Source: Candidatus Kaiserbacteria bacterium RIFCSPLOWO2_01_FULL_45_25 (GTDB taxonomy: Bacteria; Patescibacteriota; Minisyncoccia; Phycocordibacterales; UBA918). Taken from it: a stretch of 64,000 bases of DNA. Location of the stretch: contig MFLT01000003.1 of NCBI GenBank assembly GCA_001781415.1, forward strand, positions 6,672-70,671, in the 5' to 3' direction. This document shows, in pieces, positions 3,572-55,623 of the stretch. Position 1 is the first letter of the stretch; the number at the start of each line of letters is the position of its first letter. Below the pieces are notes generated by a model. That model was not told where the DNA came from. It made no database searches and saw nothing but the letters and a program-made list of their open reading frames with translations. The position numbers and the translations under genes are program-made.

Positions 3572-3699
3572 TAATTACCTCCACAAAGCTCCCGCTCTGT
3601 CTTAATTAACATTCTATCACACCCCTCCCAGGTACACTGTTTATAACTTTTCAATTATCTGGTAGACTGTTGCGCACTGCTTACATAAGCATAAATATT

Positions 3700-3781
3700 G
3701 CCTCGGTGGCGGAATTGGTATACGCGCACGACTCAAAATCGTGTATCGCAAGGTGTGAGGGTTCGACCCCCTCCCGAGGCA
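3700..3781 (+). tRNA. tRNA-Leu(CAA)
   Basis: Acceptor gcctcgg/ccgaggc, anticodon loop cuCAAaa, long variable arm, T-arm gagggttcgaccccctc. CCA not encoded. Confidence 0.8.
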
Positions 3782-4025
3782 CAGAAAATGACCACTCCTT
3801 TCAGGAGTGGTCATTTTGTGCCTCGGGAGCAAGCAAATAATTTTGCTTGCGTAGGGGGTCGAAAACCGCAGCGATGCCGTAGGCGAGCGAGGTGGGGTCG
3901 AGAGTACTTAGCAGAATCTGAGCTTGCGAAAGATTATGCTTAGTAACTCGTGACCGACCCATCTCCAATTATATATCTGTGACCGACCCCTGTCTTTCCA
4001 CCACCTGACCGACCCATCTCCAGCC
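3782..4025 (+). repeat. tRNA-linked composite repeat element, copy A
   Basis: Terminator palindrome aaaatgaccactcc..ggagtggtcatttt, then an inverted copy of the tRNA 3' end (gtgcctcgggag). A second palindrome and inverted T-arm (gtagggggtcgaa) follow. Then the conserved core ccgcagcgatgccgtaggcgagcgaggtggggtcgagagtacttagcagaatctgagc...tacttagtaactcgtgaccg. It ends in three degenerate direct copies of gaccgaccc(a/c)tctcc, matching the tRNA T-loop/3' end. Confidence 0.6.
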
Positions 4026-4101
4026 CAACCCAACAAGACAAACAAAAAACCCGCCGAAGCAAAGTTTTTTGCTTAGCGGGCTGGTTTCAGCCTTTTTCAT
4101 C

Positions 4102-4386
4102 TTACTTCTTCATTGCGGCAATTTTTTCTTGCATATCTATGCCGATGGCGCCAATGAGCGTGAAGCAAGCCACGACACCAAAAAATATGGCGCCGAGAGC
4201 AACGTACACAACCACCGTGAAATTGCTCGGGTTGTGATATATGCCCAAAACAGAGATAAAAAACAACGCAATGGACACTGCAGCGGAAATGACAAATGCG
4301 AGGGGGTGGAACATGGATTTTCTCCAGTTGATTGAACTGTTTACAACAATAGCACATTTACGCACCATTGTCAATGTTAACGCCAT
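4102..4386 (-). CDS. Small hydrophobic membrane protein (hypothetical; the true start may be the internal Met at MFHPLAF)
   Basis: Two predicted TM helices. ORF only, no recognisable family. Confidence 0.3.
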   Translation of the reverse strand: MALTLTMVRKCAIVVNSSINWRKSMFHPLAFVISAAVSIALFFISVLGIYHNPSNFTVVVYVALGAIFFGVVACFTLIGAIGIDMQEKIAAMKK

Positions 4387-4613
4387 AATTTATCTAACAA
4401 AAATCCCCGCCTAACAAAAGTTGGCGGGTGACGGCTTGAGGAACAGGGCTCTTTAGAAGAGCCTTACGACCGCCATCAGAATGGCTGGTACCAGCAAGCT
4501 GGCGGCAGCAATCATTTGGGGGCGGACGGAAGCGAGAAAGGACACGTTATTCTCCTGGTTGTTGAGCGACTCACACGATACCATCCATATTTATAAGTGT
4601 CAATTTTGGTCAG

Positions 4614-5531
4614 GTGTGCTATATTCCCCCTATGTCAAAGCCCAAAGTCATTGTAATTCTCGGACCAACCGCGTCTGGAAAGACTGCGCTATCTATCGAA
4701 CTCGCCAAACTCGTTGACGGCGAGGTGATTTCGGCTGACTCCCGCCAAGTATACAAAGGCCTCGATATCGGTTCAGGCAAAGTAACTGAGGCAGAGATGC
4801 AGGGCATCCCCCACCATCTCATTGATATCGCCAACCCAGAACAACGTTACAGTGGAGCGGACTTCGTCAATGATGCCAAGGCCGCTATCGCAGACATTGT
4901 ATCTCGCGGCAAAGTACCTATCATTGCTGGTGGTACCTTCTTCTACACCGACCTCCTCCGTGGCCGACTCCAGACAGCGAGTGTGCCACCGAACCTCCCC
5001 CTCCAAGCTGAGTTAGAGAAACTATCTACAGAAGAACTATTGGCGAAACTTGAAGCGGCCGACCCAATCCGGGCGGCCAATATCGAACAAGGTAACCGAC
5101 GAAGACTTGTCCGCGCTCTTGAGATAGTTGCTACATTAGGGCACGTACCTGTACCAGAGACTCCAGATAGTGAATTTGATTTCTTGGTCTTTGGTATCAA
5201 AATTGATCGAGAGACTTTGTACAAGCGAATTGAGATTCGCCTCCATGACCGCCTAGAGAACGGTATGCAAGAAGAAGTAACTAATCTTCTAACTAATGGC
5301 GTTGATCCGCAGCGCCTGATTGATTTTGGACTAGAATACCGCTACCTCACCCTACGCCAACATGAGACGTTAACTTATGAAGAAATGGTTGAACAGCTAT
5401 TTGCCAAACTTCGGCAGTTTGCCAAGCGGCAATTGACTTGGCTCAAGCGTGACGAGGAGATTATCTGGAAAGAATTTCCAGTCAAAGGAACTGACCTCCT
5501 ACCTGAAACGGAAGCTTTTCTTAAGAAGTAA
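4614..5531 (+). CDS. miaA: tRNA dimethylallyltransferase (likely start at MSKPKV, ~4632)
   Basis: P-loop VIVILGPTASGKT followed by ISADSRQVYKGLDIGSGK, the MiaA signature. Confidence 0.9.
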   Translation: MCYIPPMSKPKVIVILGPTASGKTALSIELAKLVDGEVISADSRQVYKGLDIGSGKVTEAEMQGIPHHLIDIANPEQRYSGADFVNDAKAAIADIVSRGKVPIIAGGTFFYTDLLRGRLQTASVPPNLPLQAELEKLSTEELLAKLEAADPIRAANIEQGNRRRLVRALEIVATLGHVPVPETPDSEFDFLVFGIKIDRETLYKRIEIRLHDRLENGMQEEVTNLLTNGVDPQRLIDFGLEYRYLTLRQHETLTYEEMVEQLFAKLRQFAKRQLTWLKRDEEIIWKEFPVKGTDLLPETEAFLKK

Positions 5532-5642
5532 CCTCCCCCGAGCAAAGTTGCCAAATCGTCCCCTTTCCCCTACTATTACACCACTCTACTATTTGGTAGA
5601 GTACTAGAGTCACAATTGGTGACTAAAAAAACAATACGTAAG

Positions 5643-5713
5643 GGCCTATAGTTCAGTGGTAGAATGCCGGTTTCCAAAACCGTTGACCGGGGTTCGAATC
5701 CTCGTGGGCCCGC
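5643..5713 (+). tRNA. tRNA-Trp(CCA)
   Basis: Acceptor gggccta/tgggccc, anticodon loop uuCCAaa, T-arm cggggttcgaatcctcg. CCA not encoded. Confidence 0.75.
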
Positions 5714-5990
5714 AAAATGAAAAACCAAAGCGTCAAGCTTTGGTTTTTCTAATTTTGCGATGGCCCACGAGGATTCGAAAGACGGAGCCGGGGACCCTTT
5801 GGGCCGGCGAGTCCGGGGAGAAAGTTCTTAACGAGCTTGCGAGTTTAGAAACTTGACCCCGAATCATCGTGGGATTAAATAGAACAAATATACTTAGTAA
5901 CTCGTGACCGCATGCGGGCCTCGCGGCACCTGCTAGATTGTGAGCATAGCGAGACAATATAACTTGGTGACCGTCAGGACGAATCCTCAT
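5714..5990 (+). repeat. tRNA-linked composite repeat element, copy B (two tandem units)
   Basis: Terminator palindrome aaaaaccaaagc..gctttggttttt, then an inverted tRNA 3' end (tgcgatggcccacgaggattcgaa). The core variant ends ...acgagcttgcgagtttagaaacttgacc and is followed by a direct copy of the tRNA 3' end (ccgaatcatcgtggg). A second unit ends ...atatacttagtaactcgtgaccg. Confidence 0.55.
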
Positions 5991-6040
5991 AAACTTAACA
6001 AAACAAAAACCGCCTCAAGGCGGTTTTTGTTTTGTCAGGC
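5991..6040. terminator. Bidirectional intrinsic terminator
   Basis: aaaacaaaaaccgcctcaaggcggtttttgttttgt. Confidence 0.6.
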
Positions 6041-6049
6041 ACGCAGTCC

Positions 6050-6403
6050 TTAGAAACTACCGCGACGCCAGAGCAGATAAACTAGTGTAGCAATAGCTAT
6101 CCCAGCTAGTGGAACTGCCCACATAGCTGCATTCCACGCAGTGGAGTCAGTTGTTGCCAACAAAGCACTTTCTTCCCTACCCTGGACGACCGTACCTTGA
6201 ATCTGTCCACTACTTTGACCAGTAGCTTGCGCTGTTACTTCACCATCTATGACCGCTTCTTCATCTGTTCCAGTTGCAGAAGAAGAGCCGTCCGAAGACA
6301 ATGAACCAGTAACCTCTGAAGCAACAGCCAAATGAACAGCACTCAAAAGTGACGCTATGACTAGAAGGAGGAGTACTACAGAGTTGTTACGAATATTAGT
6401 CAT
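6050..6403 (-). CDS. Small secreted/surface protein with an N-terminal signal/TM and a C-terminal hydrophobic segment plus RRG tail (possible cell-surface sorting signal)
   Basis: N-terminal hydrophobic stretch, Ser/Thr/Gly-rich middle, C-terminal AVPLAGIAIATLVYLLWRRGSF. Confidence 0.45.
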   Translation of the reverse strand: MTNIRNNSVVLLLLVIASLLSAVHLAVASEVTGSLSSDGSSSATGTDEEAVIDGEVTAQATGQSSGQIQGTVVQGREESALLATTDSTAWNAAMWAVPLAGIAIATLVYLLWRRGSF

Positions 6404-7703: not shown

Positions 7704-8375
7704 ATGAGAATCCTACTAGTTGAAGATGAACAACGATTGGCAGATTCACTTAAGCACGGGCTTGAGCAGAGTGGTTATGTAGTTGACCATTTCGCTGAGG
7801 GTCTACCCGCCGTTGATCGCCTGTCTTTATATAGAAACGAATATGACATTGTCATCCTCGACCTCATGCTGCCTGATATTGATGGACACACCATCTGCAA
7901 AACTGTTCGGGGCTTAGGCGTTACCCTACCAATACTAATTTTAACCGCCAGAGGAGAAACGGAAGACAAGGTTCTATTACTACAAAGCGGCGCTGATGAC
8001 TACATGGTAAAACCATTTGCGTTTAGTGAGCTACTCGCTCGCCTCCAAGCACTCTTGCGTCGTCCAGACGAGACCGTACCGAATGTATTATCAGTTGGTC
8101 AATTTACTCTTAATACTGCCACCCATACAATCTTTCGCTTTGAAGAAAAACTCCCACTGACTCTAAAAGAATTTATGTTGCTTGAATACTTCATGCGGCA
8201 TCCCAACCAAGTAATTGTTCGAGATGATATAATTGATCATGCTTGGAACTTTGACTTTTCGTCATTGAGTAACACTGTGGACGTTCACGTAAAGAACTTA
8301 CGTAAAAAAATAGGCACCGATGGAAATAAAATCATCAAAACAGTTCGAGGGGTCGGCTACCAGTTTGTGGGGTAA
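7704..8375 (+). CDS. OmpR-family two-component response regulator
   Basis: Receiver domain (LLVEDE...DIVILDLMLPDIDG...KPF) plus a winged-helix output domain (VHVKNLRKKIG...VRGVGYQF). Confidence 0.9.
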   Translation: MRILLVEDEQRLADSLKHGLEQSGYVVDHFAEGLPAVDRLSLYRNEYDIVILDLMLPDIDGHTICKTVRGLGVTLPILILTARGETEDKVLLLQSGADDYMVKPFAFSELLARLQALLRRPDETVPNVLSVGQFTLNTATHTIFRFEEKLPLTLKEFMLLEYFMRHPNQVIVRDDIIDHAWNFDFSSLSNTVDVHVKNLRKKIGTDGNKIIKTVRGVGYQFVG

Positions 8376-9426
8376 ATACCGCACCGACCTCTTCTTTAGG
8401 ACCACTTGCCACATTATTGTCCTGCAAGTAGTTTTTACTGTGATTGTGGTTATTGCTCTTTGGTTTGTTATGGACCTACTAATGAGAGACACAACTGAGG
8501 CACTGATGAGTACCTTTACCCAAATGCTGCAAGGTCAATCAGTGACTCCAGACAACGTAAGGGCCAGTATTGAAGATGTGCGCACTAATCATTTTTTACC
8601 GACAATGGTAATCAGTACTGCTCTCATGCTGTGCTTTGGATTTATTATTGTCTACGTAGCCTTGACCCCGACCCGTCGTTCAATGGAAAGACAAAAGCGG
8701 TTCATCAGCAATATTGCCCATGAACTACGAACTCCCCTGGCGGTCATACAAACCAATACAGATGTGGCACTCCTAAATAGTGACGTTCCGGCCAGACTTC
8801 GCCAAACCCTACAAAACAACAGTCAGGAGATAAGTCGAATTTCAGAAATCATGAACAATCTGCTCAGCCTCAGTAATTTCATGAGGAATGAGCAATTAAA
8901 ATTTGAAGACGTTGATCTGAGTGTTGTGGTGCAGCGGGTACTCGATACTCTAGAGGAAACCTCAAATCATAAAGACATCACTCTGGCCCTAAAGACCCAC
9001 ACCAATCAGGCTGTTCTTGGTAACGCTGTGGCGCTAGAGCAAGTGGTATTTAATCTAGTAAAAAATGCCATCACTCACACGCAGGCTCGTGGCCTAATAA
9101 CCATAGAAATTGAACCCTCTACTGATGGCAAATACATAGATTTAGCAGTTTCTGATTCCGGTAGTGGTATTGCTCGCAGTGATTTATTTCATATTTTTGA
9201 GCCATTCTATAGAGCACGTACTGCTCCAAAAAATGGTGGCAAAGGACTTGGTCTAGCCATTGTAAATGAAATTGTACAAATGCACCGTGGAAAAATAAAA
9301 ATACGGAGCACAGAAGGACAAGGGACCAAAGTCATTGTTTCAATCCTGCAAAGTACCCGAGAAATTACCTCAAAGGGTGACACTGAGGAACTGTCTATGG
9401 ATTTTTCACACAGAATATTGCAGTAG
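8320..9426 (+). CDS. Sensor histidine kinase (the start may lie downstream of the 56-bp overlap with the regulator)
   Basis: Two TM segments, H-box ISNIAHELRTPL, HATPase motifs (NLVKNAITHT, DSGSGIA, GGKGLGLAIV). Confidence 0.85.
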   Translation: MEIKSSKQFEGSATSLWGKYRTDLFFRTTCHIIVLQVVFTVIVVIALWFVMDLLMRDTTEALMSTFTQMLQGQSVTPDNVRASIEDVRTNHFLPTMVISTALMLCFGFIIVYVALTPTRRSMERQKRFISNIAHELRTPLAVIQTNTDVALLNSDVPARLRQTLQNNSQEISRISEIMNNLLSLSNFMRNEQLKFEDVDLSVVVQRVLDTLEETSNHKDITLALKTHTNQAVLGNAVALEQVVFNLVKNAITHTQARGLITIEIEPSTDGKYIDLAVSDSGSGIARSDLFHIFEPFYRARTAPKNGGKGLGLAIVNEIVQMHRGKIKIRSTEGQGTKVIVSILQSTREITSKGDTEELSMDFSHRILQ

Positions 9427-10649: not shown

Positions 10650-11168
10650 TTAAATAATTATATTACAACTCTGGGTTAACGGCGTTGCTGTTGAGCACAT
10701 ATATGTATCTGCCGGCAATGTAACCAAGTTATCTAAAGGTACTGCAAAACTACTACGTGGTTGTGGTGCTGGCTGAGTTGTACAGATGATGTCATTCCAA
10801 ACACCGTAATTTTCTTGTCTGAGCAGGAAGCGCAAGCCAGTATCCACTAGCATCCACGCTGCCAAAAATAGTATGTACCCAACAATAGCGTTACTGATTA
10901 GTTTACGAGCGTTTGTCACTGCTGATAGATCACCAGCCGCTACCACCATCCTGAGTCCAGCCAGCATAATGAGAATAACCACTATAATTCCCATAACTGT
11001 CGCCAACCAGCCACCAACCGTCGCCACTAGTGCTCCAACATGGCACATTTGGCATGGCTCTTCACCTATCCCACCACACGGAACCAACCCGGCTGCAGCC
11101 ACCACAGACGGAGAAAGAAGAATGAGAGTAGGCAGGAAGCTTTTCCACATATAGGTATATACTAGCAT
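10650..11168 (-). CDS. TrbC/VirB2-like pilin-type membrane protein; the ORF-track start at 11420 is unlikely because it runs through tRNA-Tyr fragments
   Basis: From MLVYTYMWKSFL: signal peptide, Cys-containing segment, two TM helices. Adjacent and co-oriented with the 9785..10648 gene. Confidence 0.5.
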   Translation of the reverse strand: MLVYTYMWKSFLPTLILLSPSVVAAAGLVPCGGIGEEPCQMCHVGALVATVGGWLATVMGIIVVILIMLAGLRMVVAAGDLSAVTNARKLISNAIVGYILFLAAWMLVDTGLRFLLRQENYGVWNDIICTTQPAPQPRSSFAVPLDNLVTLPADTYMCSTATPLTQSCNIII

Positions 11169-11230
11169 GACCACTCTTTGAAAATCAGGCAAGATGTGGT
11201 AATTTGTATGCCACATACGGCATACCGTAT

Positions 11231-11270
11231 TAATCGCGTCGGTACTCAAGCGGTCAACGAGGGCAGACTG
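11231..11270 (+). repeat. Partial 5'-half duplicate of tRNA-Tyr (first ~40 nt up to the anticodon)
   Basis: gcgtcggtactcaagcggtcaacgagggcagactgta is identical to the 5' part of the full tRNA-Tyr gene 200 bp downstream. It diverges exactly at the anticodon loop. Confidence 0.55.
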
Positions 11271-11431
11271 TATGACTTGCGCTTTGCGCACCAGGAAGTC
11301 ATGCTGGCATAGGTGTCTCCCACCGGAGACTCTGTCTAAAGTCGCTAGACGCGACACACCAGTAAATCTTGCAGATTTCCAGTCTGCTGATATAACTGAT
11401 AGGACCAAGTGATACAACAAAATAAATAAAT

Positions 11432-11514
11432 GCGTCGGTACTCAAGCGGTCAACGAGGGCAGACTGTAAATCTGCTGACTTATGTCTACGAAGGTTCGAA
11501 TCCCTCCCGGCGCA
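11432..11514 (+). tRNA. tRNA-Tyr(GTA)
   Basis: Acceptor gcgtcgg/ccggcgc, anticodon loop cuGUAaa, long variable arm, T-loop ttcgaat. Confidence 0.8.
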
Positions 11515-11935
11515 CGCGTATAAAAAACCGTCCAAGCACAAGCTTGGGCGTTTTTTATTGCGTGCGCCGGAGCAAGGCATCTGCATGCCTTGCGTGAGGG
11601 ATTCGAAAAGCGCAGCGATGCCGTAGGCGAGCGAGCTGGGGTCGAGAACACTTAGTAGATTATGAGCGAAGCGAAATAATATACTTAGTGATTTGTGACC
11701 GAATCCCTCCCCTCCCGGAGCACATTAGAATTAAAAACACCAAATGGTGCTTTTTCTAATGTGCGCCGGGAAGTGAAATGTCTGGGAGACATTTCATGTG
11801 GGATTCGAAGCCCGATTGAGCTAGATTGAAAGCAAAGCGCATCAATCTAGCCAATTGGGGTACTGGTCGTGTAACGACCGAAATTCCCTCCCGGCGCACG
11901 CGTTAAAAATCCTTGCTCAACAAGGTATTTTTATA
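11515..11935 (+). repeat. tRNA-linked composite repeat element, copy C (tandem, with two direct repeats of the tRNA-Tyr 3' end)
   Basis: Terminator palindrome, then inverted tRNA 3' end (tgcgtgcgccggag), a second palindrome and an inverted T-arm (cgtgagggattcgaa). Core gcgcagcgatgccgtaggcgagcgagctggggtcgagaacacttagtag...tacttagtgatttgtgaccg|aatccctcccctcccggagcaca. A second unit ends ggtcgtgtaacgaccg|aaattccctcccggcgcacgcg, and a terminator hairpin closes the element. Confidence 0.6.
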
Positions 11936-11978
11936 GTCCGAAATAGATGATTCGACACTCTGCTATACTTAAAGAATT

Positions 11979-12524
11979 ATGCCAAAGACTTTTCTTGTAT
12001 TAATTGATGGTCCAATGGGTTCTGGAAAAACTACCACCAGTAAGCTACTCAATCAAAAACTCCCTGATACCGCTCGTGTCGCTTTACCAGACATCAAGCG
12101 TCTTGTTCCAAATTTCCGAGAAGACTCCAAAACTTTAAACACAATTAGAGAAGTAATGCGAGCGATGATTGAAACATATCTTAAAAATGATGTCAGCGTC
12201 GTTGTTGAACAAATTACAAAAGCGGATGGTGCACATCTACTAAAAGAAATAACTGAGAGGAACGGAGCAACATTTCATGGATACCGGCTAACGGCCCCAA
12301 AGGAGATTCGCTGGAACAGAGTTCTAGAGAGAACAAAATGTATGATGGAAGTATCGGAGTTACCCCAATCGAAAATCGATGAATTAGCTGGATATTTCGA
12401 ACCAAATCATCAATTTTATATAGATAATCCTATTGAGATATCTGAAACCGTTAACACCGATGAATTCAATACCGATGAAGTAATTTCACACATCATAAAT
12501 AACTTGACAACACAGCCTTATTAA
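11979..12524 (+). CDS. P-loop NTPase/kinase (AAA_33 or zeta-toxin-like small kinase), AT-rich
   Basis: Walker A LIDGPMGSGKTTT near the N-terminus, ~180 aa. The family is not resolved from sequence alone. Confidence 0.45.
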   Translation: MPKTFLVLIDGPMGSGKTTTSKLLNQKLPDTARVALPDIKRLVPNFREDSKTLNTIREVMRAMIETYLKNDVSVVVEQITKADGAHLLKEITERNGATFHGYRLTAPKEIRWNRVLERTKCMMEVSELPQSKIDELAGYFEPNHQFYIDNPIEISETVNTDEFNTDEVISHIINNLTTQPY

Positions 12525-45001: not shown

Positions 45002-45133
45002 CACAAATTCTTTTGTGTCAAACACACGAATTTGATTGATGTCAATATCGTGACAGATAGTTTTATCCGCTGTATGATTACGGAGCTTATTAAATAAAGG
45101 TACTCAGGGGTGGGTACGAGCACAATTTTTTAT

Positions 45134-46393
45134 TACACAAAATTTATGGAACAAATTAAATCAGACGTTGAATCTTTCGCACGTATCCGAGTAATTGGAG
45201 TTGGAGGTTCTGGTAACAATGCCGTGAACTACATGGTGGGCTCAAAAGTTAAGGGTGTAGAATTTATTGCCATTAACAGTGACGCACAAGATTTGCATCA
45301 CTCACTAGCAAAGAAGAAAATTCACATCGGTAAAAATCTTACTCGTGGACTAGGAGCTGGTGGTAATCCTGAACAGGGACGCCGAGCCGCTGAAGAGACA
45401 CGTGAGGAAATTAATAACTCCATCAAGGGCTCAGACATGATCTTTGTTACTTGTGGTATGGGTGGTGGAACAGGTACTGGAGCTGCTCCAGTTATTGCCA
45501 AGATCGCTCGCGAAAGTGGCGCCCTAACTGTTGGTGTTGTAACCAAGCCATTCCTATTTGAAGGACAAGAGCGTATGCGCTTGGCCCTCCAAGGAATTGA
45601 AGAGCTCAAGAAGGAAGTAGACGCTCTCATCACCATCCCAAACGACCGACTCCTCGCTATCGTTGATCGCGAAACTACCGTCCGCAATGCCTTTGAGCAG
45701 TGTGACAATGTACTCAAGCAAGCTGTTGAAGGTATCTCTGACCTCATCACAATGCCAGGTATCATCAACGTCGACTTTGCCGACATCCGTAGTGTGATGG
45801 AAAACGCTGGTTCAGCTCTCATGGGTGTAGGTGTATCAACTGGCGAAAAGCGTGCTGAAGAAGCCGCTCGCTCAGCGATTAATTCCCCACTCCTTGAAGT
45901 ATCTATTACTGGAGCTAAGGGTGTACTCTTTGCCATTGCTGGTGGAGACGACCTCGCCATGCTCGAAGTACAAGATGCCGCTCGTATCATTACAGAATCA
46001 ATCGACCCACATGCCAAGGTTATCTTTGGAGCGATTAAAGACGAGAAGCTAAAGAAGAATGAGATTAAAGTAACTGTGATTGCAACCGGTTTCCCAGAAG
46101 AAACTAGTGGTACACAAAACACCATCTCTCGTCGCATACCAACCGCAGCGCCAAGTCGAGTGGAGCCAGAAGATGAAATGGTGGAGCCATCTCGTGGCAA
46201 AATCTTCAACTCTCTATCAGTACCACGACGTCCCGAAGCAGAGATGACTCCAGAACCAACCATGTCTCAGGCTGCACCTAAGGCACCAGAAATGCTAAAG
46301 CGTGATCCAAAGCCAGTTGATCCTATTGACGAGGATGATGGGGATGACTGGGGGGCAGTGCCTGCTTTCCTACGTAGGTCAAAGTTGAAATAG
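45134..46393 (+). CDS. ftsZ: Cell division protein FtsZ (start probably MEQIKS, ~45134/45146)
   Basis: [11 protein letters not shown] and the tubulin signature [13 protein letters not shown]. Confidence 0.95.
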
Positions 46394-46612
46394 GAAGTAT
46401 CTACTTACCTCGTAGTACTTATTACTCTCTGTAGCAGGCACTGCCGGACGGAGCGTAGTGAGTCGCCCCTTTCCTAGGGCGACGAACCGCGAGTCGGGGT
46501 CGAGAACACTTAGTAGAATTTTGCACGAAGTGCTAAATTATACTTAGTGATTCGTGACCGGTGCCGGTATATCTTTTAACAAAACCCGCCTCTAGGCGGG
46601 TTTTGTTAAAAT
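46394..46612 (+). repeat. Composite repeat element core, copy G (no adjacent tRNA), with terminator
   Basis: gcaggcactgccggacggagcgtagtgagtcgcccctttcctagggcgacgaaccgcgagtcggggtcgagaacacttagtagaattttgcacgaagtgctaaattatacttagtgattcgtgaccg, then the terminator aaaacccgcctctaggcgggtttt. Confidence 0.55.
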
Positions 46613-46639: not shown

Positions 46640-46765
46640 GACACTGCCGGCCGCAGCGAAAAGTGAACAAACGAGACGCAAAGCGTCGACTATTGTGAAC
46701 TTATGCAGAAGTAATATTATTTTCGACCCACAAGGGAGAAAATAATATATACTTCCTGCAAGTAA
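46640..46765 (+). repeat. Dispersed stem-loop element, family R, copy d (~100 bp upstream of trxB); begins with the core-like ccgcagcga
   Basis: gcagacactgccggccgcagcgaaaagtgaacaaacgagacgcaaagcgtcgactattgtgaacttatgcagaagtaatattattttcgacccacaagggagaaaataatatatacttcctgc. Confidence 0.55.
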
Positions 46766-46868
46766 GTCCCTCGACAATACCTCTCCCCAAAACCCCACCG
46801 GCCCCACGCCGATGGGGTTTTGCTGTTAACTCCTCTTGCGGTACAATAGGCTCCACTAACACATAATA

Positions 46869-48271: not shown

Positions 48272-48702
48272 CATCGGTATTAAACAAACGACCACTTCTC
48301 AGGAAGTGGTCGTTTGTTTAATAGAAAGCAAAGAGTTTTGCTTTCGTACCGATGTGACAGTCGGAGCACTGTGAGCTTGCGAACAAGCGAGACGGGGTCG
48401 AGAGTACTTAGATTTTTATGAGTAAAACGAAATAAAAAGCTTAGTAACTCGTGACCACAGGAGTGACCACCAATGTTGCCTGCGGCCTGCTGTGAGGCCG
48501 CAGCGATGCCGGAGGCGAGCGAGGCGGGGTCGAGAGTACTTAGCAGAATCTGAGCTTTGCGAAAGATTATGCTTAGATAAAACTTTCTGGGAGATAGTTT
48601 TATCGTGGCACAAATGCAGAACTGAGTGGAGCGAAGACCTTATTTAACGAGCTTGCGAGCTTAGAAACTTGACCCCGATTCTCCGTAGGGTCACACTTTT
48701 TT
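48272..48702 (+). repeat. tRNA-linked composite repeat element, copy H (two tandem cores)
   Basis: Two palindromes, then the inverted 3' end gtaccgatgtgac. Core 1 ...gagacggggtcgagagtacttag...atgagtaaaacgaaataaaaagcttagtaactcgtgacc. Core 2 ccgcagcgatgccggaggcgagcgaggcggggtcgagagtacttagcagaatctgagc..., with the same inserted 28-nt palindrome as copy E. Ends ...gcgagcttagaaacttgacc|ccgattctccgtagggtcaca (direct tRNA 3'-end copy), then a T-run. Confidence 0.6.
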
Positions 48703-48774
48703 GAGCTATATAATAAGACTTGTTTTATACCCAAAGAATACTCTGGAATCATTTTTGTGGTGTAGACTTAATAT

Positions 48775-49437
48775 ATGAAAAATATATTCATTGTAGTTTT
48801 ATTGATACTACTATCGGGGGTAGGAGTATTTATTTATACAAATGTAAAAAATAATGATTTACCCTCAAATGAAAAGGTTACCTACACTAATAATTTACTT
48901 GGTTATTCAGTAGTTTTACCAGATGGATATGAAGTGGCTGAAGAATATACAAAATTTGTTAATCAAGACCTTGAATTAGGATCTATAACATATGAAGATA
49001 AAGTTTTTGATATCCAACGAGCAGAAATTATTGTCTTTTCTCCTGACACAATAGAAGAGCAGCTAGAGACAATAAATAGAGCATCATCATATTCAAACGA
49101 AGGTAAAATGCTTACTCAAGAACCAAACTACATCTATATTGAACCAAATCCAGTTTCACCAGAGATAAGAAATCGTTTAGAGGAGAAACTACAAGAAATA
49201 AACCCAAAAGATGAAGATGGATTCCGTCTAGCTAATACACCTTTAATGTTTAGTGCGGAAAAAGTACAAGAAAGAATTATAAAGACAGTTTTGCTTGAAG
49301 AGACAAAAAAATACTATGTCAACGAAAGTTACAATGATACTGGATATCAAGAGGTGTATGGCTTAGACATTGTTGTTCCAAATAATAATGAGGCTAAACA
49401 AATTGTAGCCAAGATGATAGCTAGTCTAGAATATTAG
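48775..49437 (+). CDS. Hypothetical membrane-anchored protein, strongly AT-rich
   Basis: N-terminal TM helix. Lys/Asn/Glu/Ile/Tyr-rich composition, unlike neighbouring genes. Confidence 0.45.
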   Translation: MKNIFIVVLLILLSGVGVFIYTNVKNNDLPSNEKVTYTNNLLGYSVVLPDGYEVAEEYTKFVNQDLELGSITYEDKVFDIQRAEIIVFSPDTIEEQLETINRASSYSNEGKMLTQEPNYIYIEPNPVSPEIRNRLEEKLQEINPKDEDGFRLANTPLMFSAEKVQERIIKTVLLEETKKYYVNESYNDTGYQEVYGLDIVVPNNNEAKQIVAKMIASLEY

Positions 49438-49561
49438 TAATTGTTATCTACTTCCCAAACCCCTCCAAGACTTCATCTCCTTAACAAGTTGGTTCCAATT
49501 CGTAATACTTAGTGTCACAACGGGTACAGAAAAAGCGGGACGATTCTCCGTAGATTAACAT

Positions 49562-55229: not shown

Positions 55230-55305
55230 GTCCGATTAGCTCAGCTGGTAGAGCGCTTCGTCGACATCGAAGAGGTCACAGGTTCAAGTCCTGTATCGGA
55301 CACCA
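55230..55305 (+). tRNA. tRNA-Val(GAC), CCA encoded
   Basis: Acceptor gtccgat/atcggac, anticodon loop ucGACau, T-arm acaggttcaagtcctgt, then a-CCA. Confidence 0.8.
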
Positions 55306-55344
55306 TTATAAAAAGCCCCGGGTGGGGCTTTTTATAATGGTGTC
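55299..55344. repeat. 46-nt perfect palindrome spanning the tRNA-Val 3' end and its terminator (left boundary of the islet)
   Basis: gacaccattataaaaagccccgggtggggctttttataatggtgtc. Confidence 0.7.
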
Positions 55345-55623
55345 TTTAATTGTACCAAGTCCGAACCTGCTTCCAAAACAAATGATGTCATACGCGCCGA
55401 GCTCGTGGTGGTTTTGTACCTCTCCGTGCGCTCAACGTTCGTGGTGACGCCTCGGCCCACGCTAGCAAGCTCGCGTGGCGCACTTACAAAAAATTTTCTT
55501 ATCTTTTTATCGGCTCCTCCGCCGACACCTCCGCCGAAAGGCGAAAAGATATGGAAAAGAAATTTTTGGAGTGCGACGGCACTATCAAGGGAATACAAAA
55601 AGTGATAAAATACGAATACAACT

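Follow-up and report, generated by a model that had tools for sequence, protein, structure and literature searches.

The window, that is, the whole 64,000-nucleotide stretch of DNA analysed here, carries a working tRNA-Tyr gene with a GTA anticodon and a long variable arm, which scores 49.4 bits against the Rfam tRNA family (RF00005; gathering score 29) and is surrounded by partial copies of itself (Table 1). The upstream copy comprises the 5' half of the gene. It is identical to 11432-11468 at 37 of 37 positions (blastn-short, E = 2.8e-16 within the window), extends to 42 nt at 95% identity when 5 nt of upstream flank are counted and stops after A36, so that the break falls between positions 36 and 37 in the anticodon loop. 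Two copies of the tRNA 3' end follow downstream, both of which begin in the T-loop. In the proximal one, 11700-11711 is an exact match of 12 nt and the rest up to 11723 differs by four inserted nucleotides (CCTC) and a single C>A substitution. The distal one includes a 15-nt exact copy of the tRNA 3' end (11885-11899, E = 0.004); counting the trailer, 11885-11909 reaches 92% identity, and the exact match in the copy at 11880-11903 amounts to 19 nt, four trailer bases included. The original prediction had reported the 5'-half duplicate (at 11231-11270, here corrected to 11236-11272), the two 3'-end direct copies and breaks in the anticodon loop and the T-loop, and all of these were recovered, the breaks at 36/37 and 55/56.

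Table 1. Features of the tRNA-Tyr locus (coordinates within the window)
Feature	Position	Strand	Evidence
Displaced original tRNA-Tyr 5' half (positions 1-36/37), original upstream flank attached	11236-11272	+	
X core (family 3): three hairpins and inner helix	11273-11370	+	
X closing arm: inverted anticodon-arm copy	11371-11387	+	
Insert-borne spacer, now upstream region of the working tRNA-Tyr	11388-11431	+	
Working tRNA-Tyr(GTA)	11432-11514	+	ARAGORN and Rfam
Trailer and terminator hairpin S1 (stem 11529-11550)	11515-11559	+	Terminator scan, inverted repeats
Unit 1 inverted arm	11560-11607	+	Repeat comparisons
Unit 1 core (family 1), three-way junction ending in ...CTTAGTGATTTGTGAC	11608-11699	+	Covariance model
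Older displaced tRNA-Tyr 3' part (C56 to 3' end), degenerate	11700-11723	+	
Trailer and terminator hairpin S2	11724-11758	+	Inverted repeat, 23 nt at 87%
Unit 2 inverted arm: 11759-11771, hairpin 11772-11799, GGGATTCGAA at 11800-11809	11759-11809	+	
Unit 2 core (family 2): long hairpin, GUACUG, short hairpin with UGUAA loop	11810-11879	+	
Oldest displaced tRNA-Tyr 3' part and trailer (GAAATTCCCTCCCGGCGCACGCGT)	11880-11903	+	
Terminator S3 (11911-11925), then degenerate inverted arm	11904-11957	+	Terminator scan

The locus had been read as a tRNA-Tyr-specific scar made of direct repeats. This description turned out to be too narrow, as inverted copies of tRNA segments and folded cores are also present. 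Upstream of the gene lies insert X, 3' of which a complete and uninterrupted tRNA-Tyr is found. The closing arm of X matches the reverse complement of 11459-11475 at 16 of 17 positions and, in the consensus fold, pairs with 11262-11269 in the displaced 5' half, which closes X. Homologues of X are located upstream of tRNA-Tyr at the loci L045, L141, L165, L120, L153 and L179, and a consensus fold of 7 sequences (RNAalifold) contains compensatory changes in 13 of 39 pairs. Among 117 genome loci X was found only at L045, and elsewhere only at relatives of this tRNA-Tyr locus; a broadly occurring family was thereby ruled out in favour of a narrow one. A group I intron could likewise be rejected, since X is only about 100 nt long, has no match to Rfam Intron_gpI, does not fit the splice-site rules and is followed by a complete tRNA. 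The spacer between X and the working gene is conserved directly 5' of the tRNA at L045 and L126 and absent at L176 and L157, and may act as its promoter.

The downstream units share a common design, in which the terminator hairpins S1, S2 and S3 are the tips of long palindromes made by a tRNA 3' copy and the inverted arm that follows it. For S1, this palindrome spans 11495-11607. The inverted arm of unit 1 consists of the complement of the tRNA-Tyr acceptor 3' strand and trailer (11560-11570), a hairpin inserted exactly opposite the junction of acceptor and T-stem (11571-11595) and the complement of T-stem and T-loop (11596-11607). It mirrors the upstream tRNA end with its own trailer at 11 of 11 positions, compared to 8 of 11 for the downstream copy. 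In unit 2, S2 forms the tip of the palindrome 11708-11776, inverted tRNA-Tyr 3' copies occupy 11761-11771 and 11800-11809, and a small hairpin again stands opposite the acceptor/T-stem junction. The two cores belong to different families. The unit 1 core is detected by the family-1 covariance model with 116.6 bits (E = 4e-27), whereas the same model gives no detection of the unit 2 core, whose family comprises 24 distinct relatives behind related tRNA-Tyr genes, with compensatory changes in 11 of 11 predicted pairs. Sequences similar to 11904-11957 occur at L181, L131, L165 and L173-L175, and a TTCGACA in the degenerate arm after S3 resembles a -35 box and is a putative promoter element of the next gene. 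A kinase-like gene (11979-12524) comes after the array.

The history of the locus was approached through its relatives. A metagenome scan for tRNA-Tyr genes with matching T-arm and acceptor returned 65 loci, each with 0 to 3 units, in which terminators, arm hairpins and family-1 or family-2 cores are variously combined. Comparison with orthologous loci, named in the original prediction as a check, revealed two, L176 and L157, that lack both the upstream insert and unit 1. L176 matches the window at 11129-11272 with 99.3% identity (one mismatch in 144 positions), and L157 fits equally well in a three-way alignment. In both, ...GGGCAGACTGTA continues straight into the remainder of the tRNA, with no X and no unit 1. 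Because the working tRNA of both relatives uses this orthologous stretch as its 5' half, 11236-11272 must be the original 5' half. Relative to them, the window has an insertion of 196 nt that is made up of X, its inverted arm, the spacer and a new 5' half. On the basis of this comparison, the 5' half of the working gene (11432-11468) probably came with the upstream insert, and its part from C56 onwards (11497-11514) is likely the copy delivered with unit 1. On the 3' side, an S2-type terminator directly follows the intact tRNA at L176, L157, L045, L122 and L148, and S2 itself has its homologue in the terminator nearest the tRNA at L176, L157 and L045, behind whose tRNA-Tyr S1 is missing. Since S2 abuts the tRNA in these relatives, S1 and unit 1 (together about 208 nt) sit between the tRNA and the older, decayed 3' part.

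Other relatives provide further states. L126 has only a degenerate 5' copy and the spacer. At L171 the tRNA is bare, and the next gene's TTGACA promoter comes immediately behind it; exactly this point is occupied by a single cassette, flanked by a 19-nt repeat, at L141 and L159. In a few cases, distal tRNA-Tyr 3' copies bracket genes in metagenome loci. The existence of relatives with near-identical flanks that lack X and unit 1 argues for the gain or loss of units as blocks. The presence or absence of units could instead reflect loss by recombination between direct repeats; the gain polarity adopted here is suggested by parsimony and by the decay of the outer copies. The window and L045, at about 78% identity, show vertical retention. 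The perfect 37/37 match of the displaced 5' half, despite the old-looking insert at L045 with its diverged half, needs a recent re-insertion or gene conversion. A similar comparison of a tRNA-Val with L062 gave no clean empty-versus-filled site. The proposal in the original prediction that tRNA loops had served repeatedly in recombination thus stands with respect to the breaks in the loops and to units having been gained or lost separately and repeatedly (L176, L157), while crossing over at these loops by a classical integrase is one undemonstrated possibility, with no recombinase gene nearby.

The same relatives settle the start of the neighbouring pilin-like gene. A long open reading frame on the minus strand (10650-11420) runs through inserted DNA that is missing from L176 and L157. 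Because its extension consists of this DNA, the shorter coding sequence, which had been favoured from the outset, is right; the 167-aa product that starts at 11153 has the whole T4SS_pilin domain.

The tRNA-Tyr gene is not the only host of such units. A self-comparison of the window covering all nine tRNAs revealed the same layout of tRNA, terminator, inverted own 3' end, core and direct copy behind six others (Leu-CAA, Trp, Leu-TAA, Lys, Leu-TAG and Glu), and several of these units have a common conserved core that ends in CTTAGTRAYTCGTGAC. The family-1 covariance model, which was built from the family-1 alignment, detects at least 9 sense-strand copies behind seven of the nine tRNAs, plus one behind ftsZ, whose 12-nt arm is a copy of the last part of the ftsZ reading frame. 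An ORF at 48775-49437 is placed between 3' copies of tRNA-Glu. More widely, a species-representative genome collection has the 18-nt core motif GGGGTCGAGARYACTTAG in at least 117 stretches, nearly all from Patescibacteria/CPR (Saccharibacteria, Paceibacterota, Nomura-, Yonath-, Kaiser- and Campbellbacteria), and 84 of 120 matches have a same-strand tRNA no more than 200 nt upstream, with about 20 identities represented. The view of a Tyr-specific locus therefore had to be abandoned, as the family of unit 1 is CPR-wide and found behind tRNAs of all identities. When loci were selected by tRNA-Tyr rather than by the core, 32 of 41 model matches were again downstream of a same-strand tRNA. Only 29 of the 86 tRNAs in these loci carry a family-1 copy, which makes the element optional.

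The arms follow the local tRNA. The tail of that tRNA is inverted before the core and direct after it at 85 tRNA-linked loci, and the longest exact match between arm and local tRNA has a median of 10 nt, compared to 6 or none for tails exchanged among loci. Direct copies of the T-loop type begin at C56 in 33 of 35 clear cases. A second class of family-1 elements copies only the discriminator and trailer, starting at the 3' end, and T-loop-like arms are also found on most of the small number of copies that have no tRNA close by. A 2-nt staggered cut, with the inverted arm reaching to T54 and the direct copy starting from C56, was considered and ruled out; two A residues belong to the core, since they are also present at the junction of the 3'-end-type copies. 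The direct repeat runs through the terminator in some loci (L004, L016, L115). The units measure 170-210 bp, and their boundaries are fixed in more than 100 genomes.

The consensus fold of family 1 was derived from 27 sequences with RNAalifold and describes a three-way junction whose P1 helix is paired from both arms. It contains a 3-bp helix that covaries (GCC/GGC, GAC/GUC, GGC/GCC, AGC/GCU), with a conserved GNAG/YGAG loop alongside, a variable hairpin on top and a GGG linker after it. The long helix is almost invariant (GGUCG.AGARYACUUAG / CUUAGURAYUCGUGACC) and includes two covarying pairs, an invariant G-U and a variable, compensated hairpin. Paired cells amount to 94.1%, compared to 77.6% in shuffles and 32-40% in slid controls, and the covariation score is 0.47 against 0.16 in shuffles, none of 500 of which reach 0.47. 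The strand that is sense for the tRNA folds more stably in 63 of 69 elements (MFE, p = 8e-12; mean difference over the 69 elements 7.9 kcal/mol). G-U pairs number 200 on the sense strand and 81 on the complement; in the 27-sequence alignment, 16 G-U face 13 A-C outside the invariant G-U, a count that does not discriminate between the strands as the MFE comparison does. This bias in stability indicates that the fold is that of one strand, either RNA or single-stranded DNA, and not of duplex DNA.

A partner gene or known RNA class was searched for in several ways. The surroundings of 120 copies, taken out to 1.5 kb, consist of housekeeping genes and show no recurring ORF for an integrase, transposase, reverse transcriptase or TnpB-like protein. 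Rfam 15 returned only the tRNA and chance hairpin matches in 11100-12000 (E up to 10) and 3650-6050 (E up to 1). Hammerhead, hairpin, HDV-like, twister, pistol and hatchet ribozymes were rejected after finding no match by eye or in Rfam, and TnpB/IscB guide RNAs, retrons and IS110 bridge RNAs for want of a recurring partner ORF. The family-1 core has no genuine copy in 2.9 million viral contigs (IMG/VR), where the single match (L183) is due to chance, being within a coding region and without a tRNA, and no core match was obtained in phage and plasmid records; on these searches a phage or plasmid origin was rejected. Full-text searches of the literature by sequence and keyword yielded no description of the elements, and the unit 1 family is apparently undescribed. 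The closest paper deals with a different thing, group I introns in tRNAs of Patescibacteria (PMC13011429).

The interpretation starts from what is observed, namely the architecture, the arms that match the tRNA, the fixed boundaries, the presence or absence of whole units and the covarying folds. The favoured explanation, held to be somewhat more likely than not, is that the locus represents a stack of three miniature, non-coding and non-autonomous integrative cassettes that target tRNA loops. Gene restoration, the breakpoints in loops and a stacking order in which the newest unit adjoins the tRNA fit tRNA-integrating elements, and yet the units differ from these, which is why miniature cassettes are proposed. 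Gene-restoring elements that integrate into tRNA genes are known to stack with the newest beside the tRNA (PMC4383910). Each cassette would comprise a folded core, a tRNA segment reaching from the insertion point to the end of the gene, an inverted copy of this segment and a transcription signal, which would be a terminator in the 3' cassettes and the upstream spacer in the 5' cassette. Upon insertion between T55 and C56 or between A36 and A37, the tRNA segment of the cassette would complete the gene, and the older segment would be pushed outward as a dead direct repeat. As new cassettes would enter beside the tRNA, older ones are expected further out. Integration may occur by recombination within the 19-37 nt block of identity. 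The tRNA copy and its inverted copy may form a hairpin arm of a single-stranded form (RNA or ssDNA), and since they would make up one arm, the joining point would be placed at the central junction. The work could be done by a chromosomally encoded enzyme or by ordinary homologous recombination after DNA uptake.

A bolder version of this explanation is conceivable, although it is on balance doubtful. It envisages a novel mobile element, a three-armed ssRNA or ssDNA of about 200 nt, possibly circular, that opens between GUGAC and C and joins a matching tRNA loop without an element-encoded protein, with the arm re-templated for each target and small gene cassettes riding along. One arm of this molecule would be a terminator-tipped hairpin copy of the target T-arm and acceptor strand, and the molecule would act like an integron attC, a CTX-phi hairpin or a ligating ribozyme.

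The most serious rival to the cassettes holds that the core works for the host, as an RNA module that belongs to the transcription unit of the tRNA and is co-transcribed with it as a structured 3'-trailer or 3'-UTR; arrays would have arisen by local tandem duplication. Its closing stem would pair with tRNA-derived sequence, and its roles might include termination, 3'-end processing or protection from read-through. Several properties of family 1 are what such a module would be expected to have: the folding bias towards the sense strand with the conserved G-U pair, helix sequences that are near-invariant across CPR phyla, copies that are always on the strand of the tRNA and the absence of a mobility gene nearby. 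Some copies must indeed be co-transcribed, because no terminator separates them from the tRNA (L096). The vertical retention seen between the window and L045, at about 78% identity, and the ftsZ-linked copy, an orthologue of which has been kept in several genomes, also fit a host function, but in the loci chosen without regard to the core only about one third of the tRNAs have a family-1 copy, and closely related tRNA-Tyr loci differ in having 0-3 units of different families. Moreover, the direct copies exceed what a stem would need and continue into trailer and terminator (L004, L016, L115), the outer copies decay (11700-11723), an inverted arm would compete with the folding of the tRNA itself, and the last unit often lacks a terminator behind it. 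A host RNA is thus considered an unlikely, if serious, explanation.

It is rather improbable that the locus is the residue of integrase-mediated islands or prophages that once occupied the anticodon loop and the T-loop of tRNA-Tyr and have since decayed, leaving the cores as attP-adjacent remnants. Displaced tRNA fragments at the ends of the elements and blocks of identity that start in a loop constitute the signature of tDNA islands (PMC4383910), and two small coding segments are found in or beside the arrays (11979-12524 and 48775-49437). Random deletion debris would not, on the other hand, produce complete units of 170-210 bp whose boundaries stay fixed across more than 100 genomes, and an inverted arm and a covarying fold are foreign to att remnants. 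The lack of a recurring integrase in the neighbourhood and of genuine core copies among the 2.9 million viral contigs and the phage and plasmid records weighs against this origin as well. An assembly artefact, by which collapsed or chimeric joins at short repeats would have created the layout, has a negligible probability even for a repeat-rich locus in what is probably a metagenome-assembled genome, because equal layouts are found in independent assemblies from different projects (L045, L141, L159, L165, L120 and others), the repeats of 12-37 nt are below read length and the units are diverged from each other, not identical.

The miniature cassettes share traits with several known systems. 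Anticodon-loop and T-loop sublocations for integration into tRNA genes were reportedly described by Williams in 2002. Like tDNA islands (PMC4383910), the cassettes lie beside a tRNA and restore it by a copy from loop to gene end, their identity blocks start in the anticodon loop or T-loop, a displaced fragment marks the far end, and tandem accretion places the newest next to the tRNA. Unlike these islands, the units span 170-210 bp, have no integrase and no ORF, possess a conserved folded core and an inverted tRNA segment, serve about 20 tRNA identities with one family, exist in 5'-side versions and have no phage or plasmid counterpart. With integron cassettes and their attC sites they have in common the small size, frequent lack of an ORF, arrays in which the newest member lies closest to the point of entry, an imperfect palindrome as boundary, structure conserved over sequence and reshuffled modules. 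The attC palindrome folds from one strand, to which the sense-strand folding bias of the units could correspond if it acts in recombination, as ssDNA or RNA. In contrast to attC, there is no IntI, R''/R' boxes (RYYYAAC / GTTRRRY) are not visible at the unit boundaries of the sequences inspected, the entry site is a tRNA loop, the arms copy the target, and each family strongly conserves its core sequence.

In IMEX of the CTX-phi type, a hairpin folded from two inverted target-like sites imitates the site in the chromosome, and folding of this kind would give the units a reason to carry their target in inverted form. Those elements, however, target dif, use XerCD and are kilobases long with genes, whereas a ssDNA form of the present units is hypothetical. 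MITE, REP and Correia elements are similarly small, non-coding, multi-copy and hairpin-forming, are found at gene 3' ends and are mobilised in trans, but their arms do not change with the target, as they do here. In MITEs the inverted repeat links the ends of the element and the duplication comprises 2-10 nt, while here it links arm and target copy and the duplication is 19-37 nt or longer, variable and specific to a part of the gene. The TnpB guide RNA of IS200/IS605 elements resembles the units in having a right-end scaffold followed by target sequence; here there is no recurring tnpA or tnpB ORF, and the left inverted arm lacks a counterpart in IS200/IS605. Finally, tRNA-attached ribozymes (theta/HDV-like, behind phage tRNAs) and introns are also structured RNAs physically tied to tRNA genes, and the tRNA group I introns of Patescibacteria (PMC13011429) even stem from the same phylum, but the element described here lies outside the mature tRNA, measures about 110 nt, adopts another fold and has no Rfam match.

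The immediate benefit of the family-1 model is that of an annotation tool. It accounts for many calls of tRNA fragments and long hairpins near CPR tRNAs and prevents false ORF extensions such as that of the pilin-like gene. CPR/Patescibacteria combine tiny genomes with a large share of bacterial diversity, and RNA processing in this phylum is, to our knowledge, poorly understood. Even so, they put up with several of these elements in 64 kb, located at tRNA genes that are essential and present in a single copy. Were the core a host RNA, tRNA expression would be linked to a structured RNA that is widespread and yet uncurated. If the units are mobile cassettes, DNA would enter tRNA genes by a new route that needs no integrase encoded by the element; the cassettes would also supply terminators and promoters and might let small genes in. 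Should the three-armed mobile element prove true, the tRNA genes of CPR bacteria would be integron-like platforms.

Copies of the 5' end of a tRNA, at least 12 nt long, were found upstream of 19 of the 177 tRNAs tested. The first 12-22 nt of the tRNA recur in this manner upstream of other CPR (Patescibacteria) tRNA genes at eight loci (L009, L036, L103 and L111; L043, L081, L048 and L010). Two types of upstream copy can be told apart: tandem repeats of about 60 nt, in which tRNA positions 1-12 are joined to GTTTTGGTAGG..., and a D-loop type followed by the hairpin ATGAAAT...ATTTCAT. Upstream of tRNA-Tyr in L179 and L153, a core resembling that of family 2 abuts a copy of tRNA positions about 18-36, and this copy is broken at 36/37 by an X element, of family 3 like the upstream insert of the window. 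The arrangement is one of nested insertions, in the D-loop and in the anticodon loop.

Non-coding cassettes of family 1 are found at further sites in the window (see table). The element behind ftsZ carries a 12-nt arm, GCAGGCACTGCC (46436-46447), which is the exact inverse of GGCAGTGCCTGC at 46355-46366, within the codons for the C-terminal peptide of FtsZ. The window can be aligned with L102, L035 and L060 through this region, and orthologous copies therefore seem to be retained in relatives. The second unit that follows is degenerate. In the tRNA-Glu array, two family-1 cores precede an exact tRNA 3'-end copy, an ORF without a match in Pfam and a shorter 3' copy, so that the ORF is bracketed by tRNA-Glu copies; beyond lie a promoter-like site, TTGACA...TATTGT, and the next ORF. 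The tRNA-Val of the window is without a core. Its CCA end is paired with TGGTGTC in a palindrome that encloses a terminator and is followed by the 7-nt CAAGTCC, matching the T-loop of tRNA-Val. These features could be the footprint of a lost unit or could have arisen by chance; the relative L062 has a complete family-1 unit at this position.

Features of the window discussed in the text
Feature	Position in window	Remarks
Response-regulator-like ORF	7704-8375	
Histidine-kinase-like ORF	8320-9426	
Small hairpin in arm	11571-11595, 11772-11799	also L157, L126, L131, L149
P-loop kinase-like gene with preceding S3/arm	11904-12524	AAA_18 / AAA_33 / Zeta_toxin matches
ftsZ	45110-46393	
Family-1 element and second unit downstream of ftsZ	46355-46570, about 46640-46790	
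tRNA-Glu array	48273-49560	
tRNA-Glu 3'-end copy	48675-48694	20 nt, exact
ORF	48775-49437	220 aa
tRNA-Glu 3' copy	49541-49553	13 nt
tRNA-Val site	55299-55375	

A small hairpin, AGCAAGCAAAnnnnTTTGCTTGCGT or GTGACTAAATGTCAC in consensus, is found in the arm where the acceptor and T-stem parts meet. It usually lies in the inverted arm, in L157 and L126 in the direct copy, and may be a minute insertion in its own right.

The response-regulator-like and histidine-kinase-like ORFs overlap by 56 nt as listed, and the true start of the latter probably lies further in.

The P-loop kinase-like gene follows the Tyr array, the stacked cassettes around tRNA-Tyr, and is preceded by the outermost terminator of the array (S3) and a degenerate inverted arm, in which TTCGACA looks like the -35 box of the gene. 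L176, with an upstream flank 99% identical to the window, lacks the gene. The kinase-like gene may be a protein-coding cassette that shares its entry site with the units of the Tyr array.
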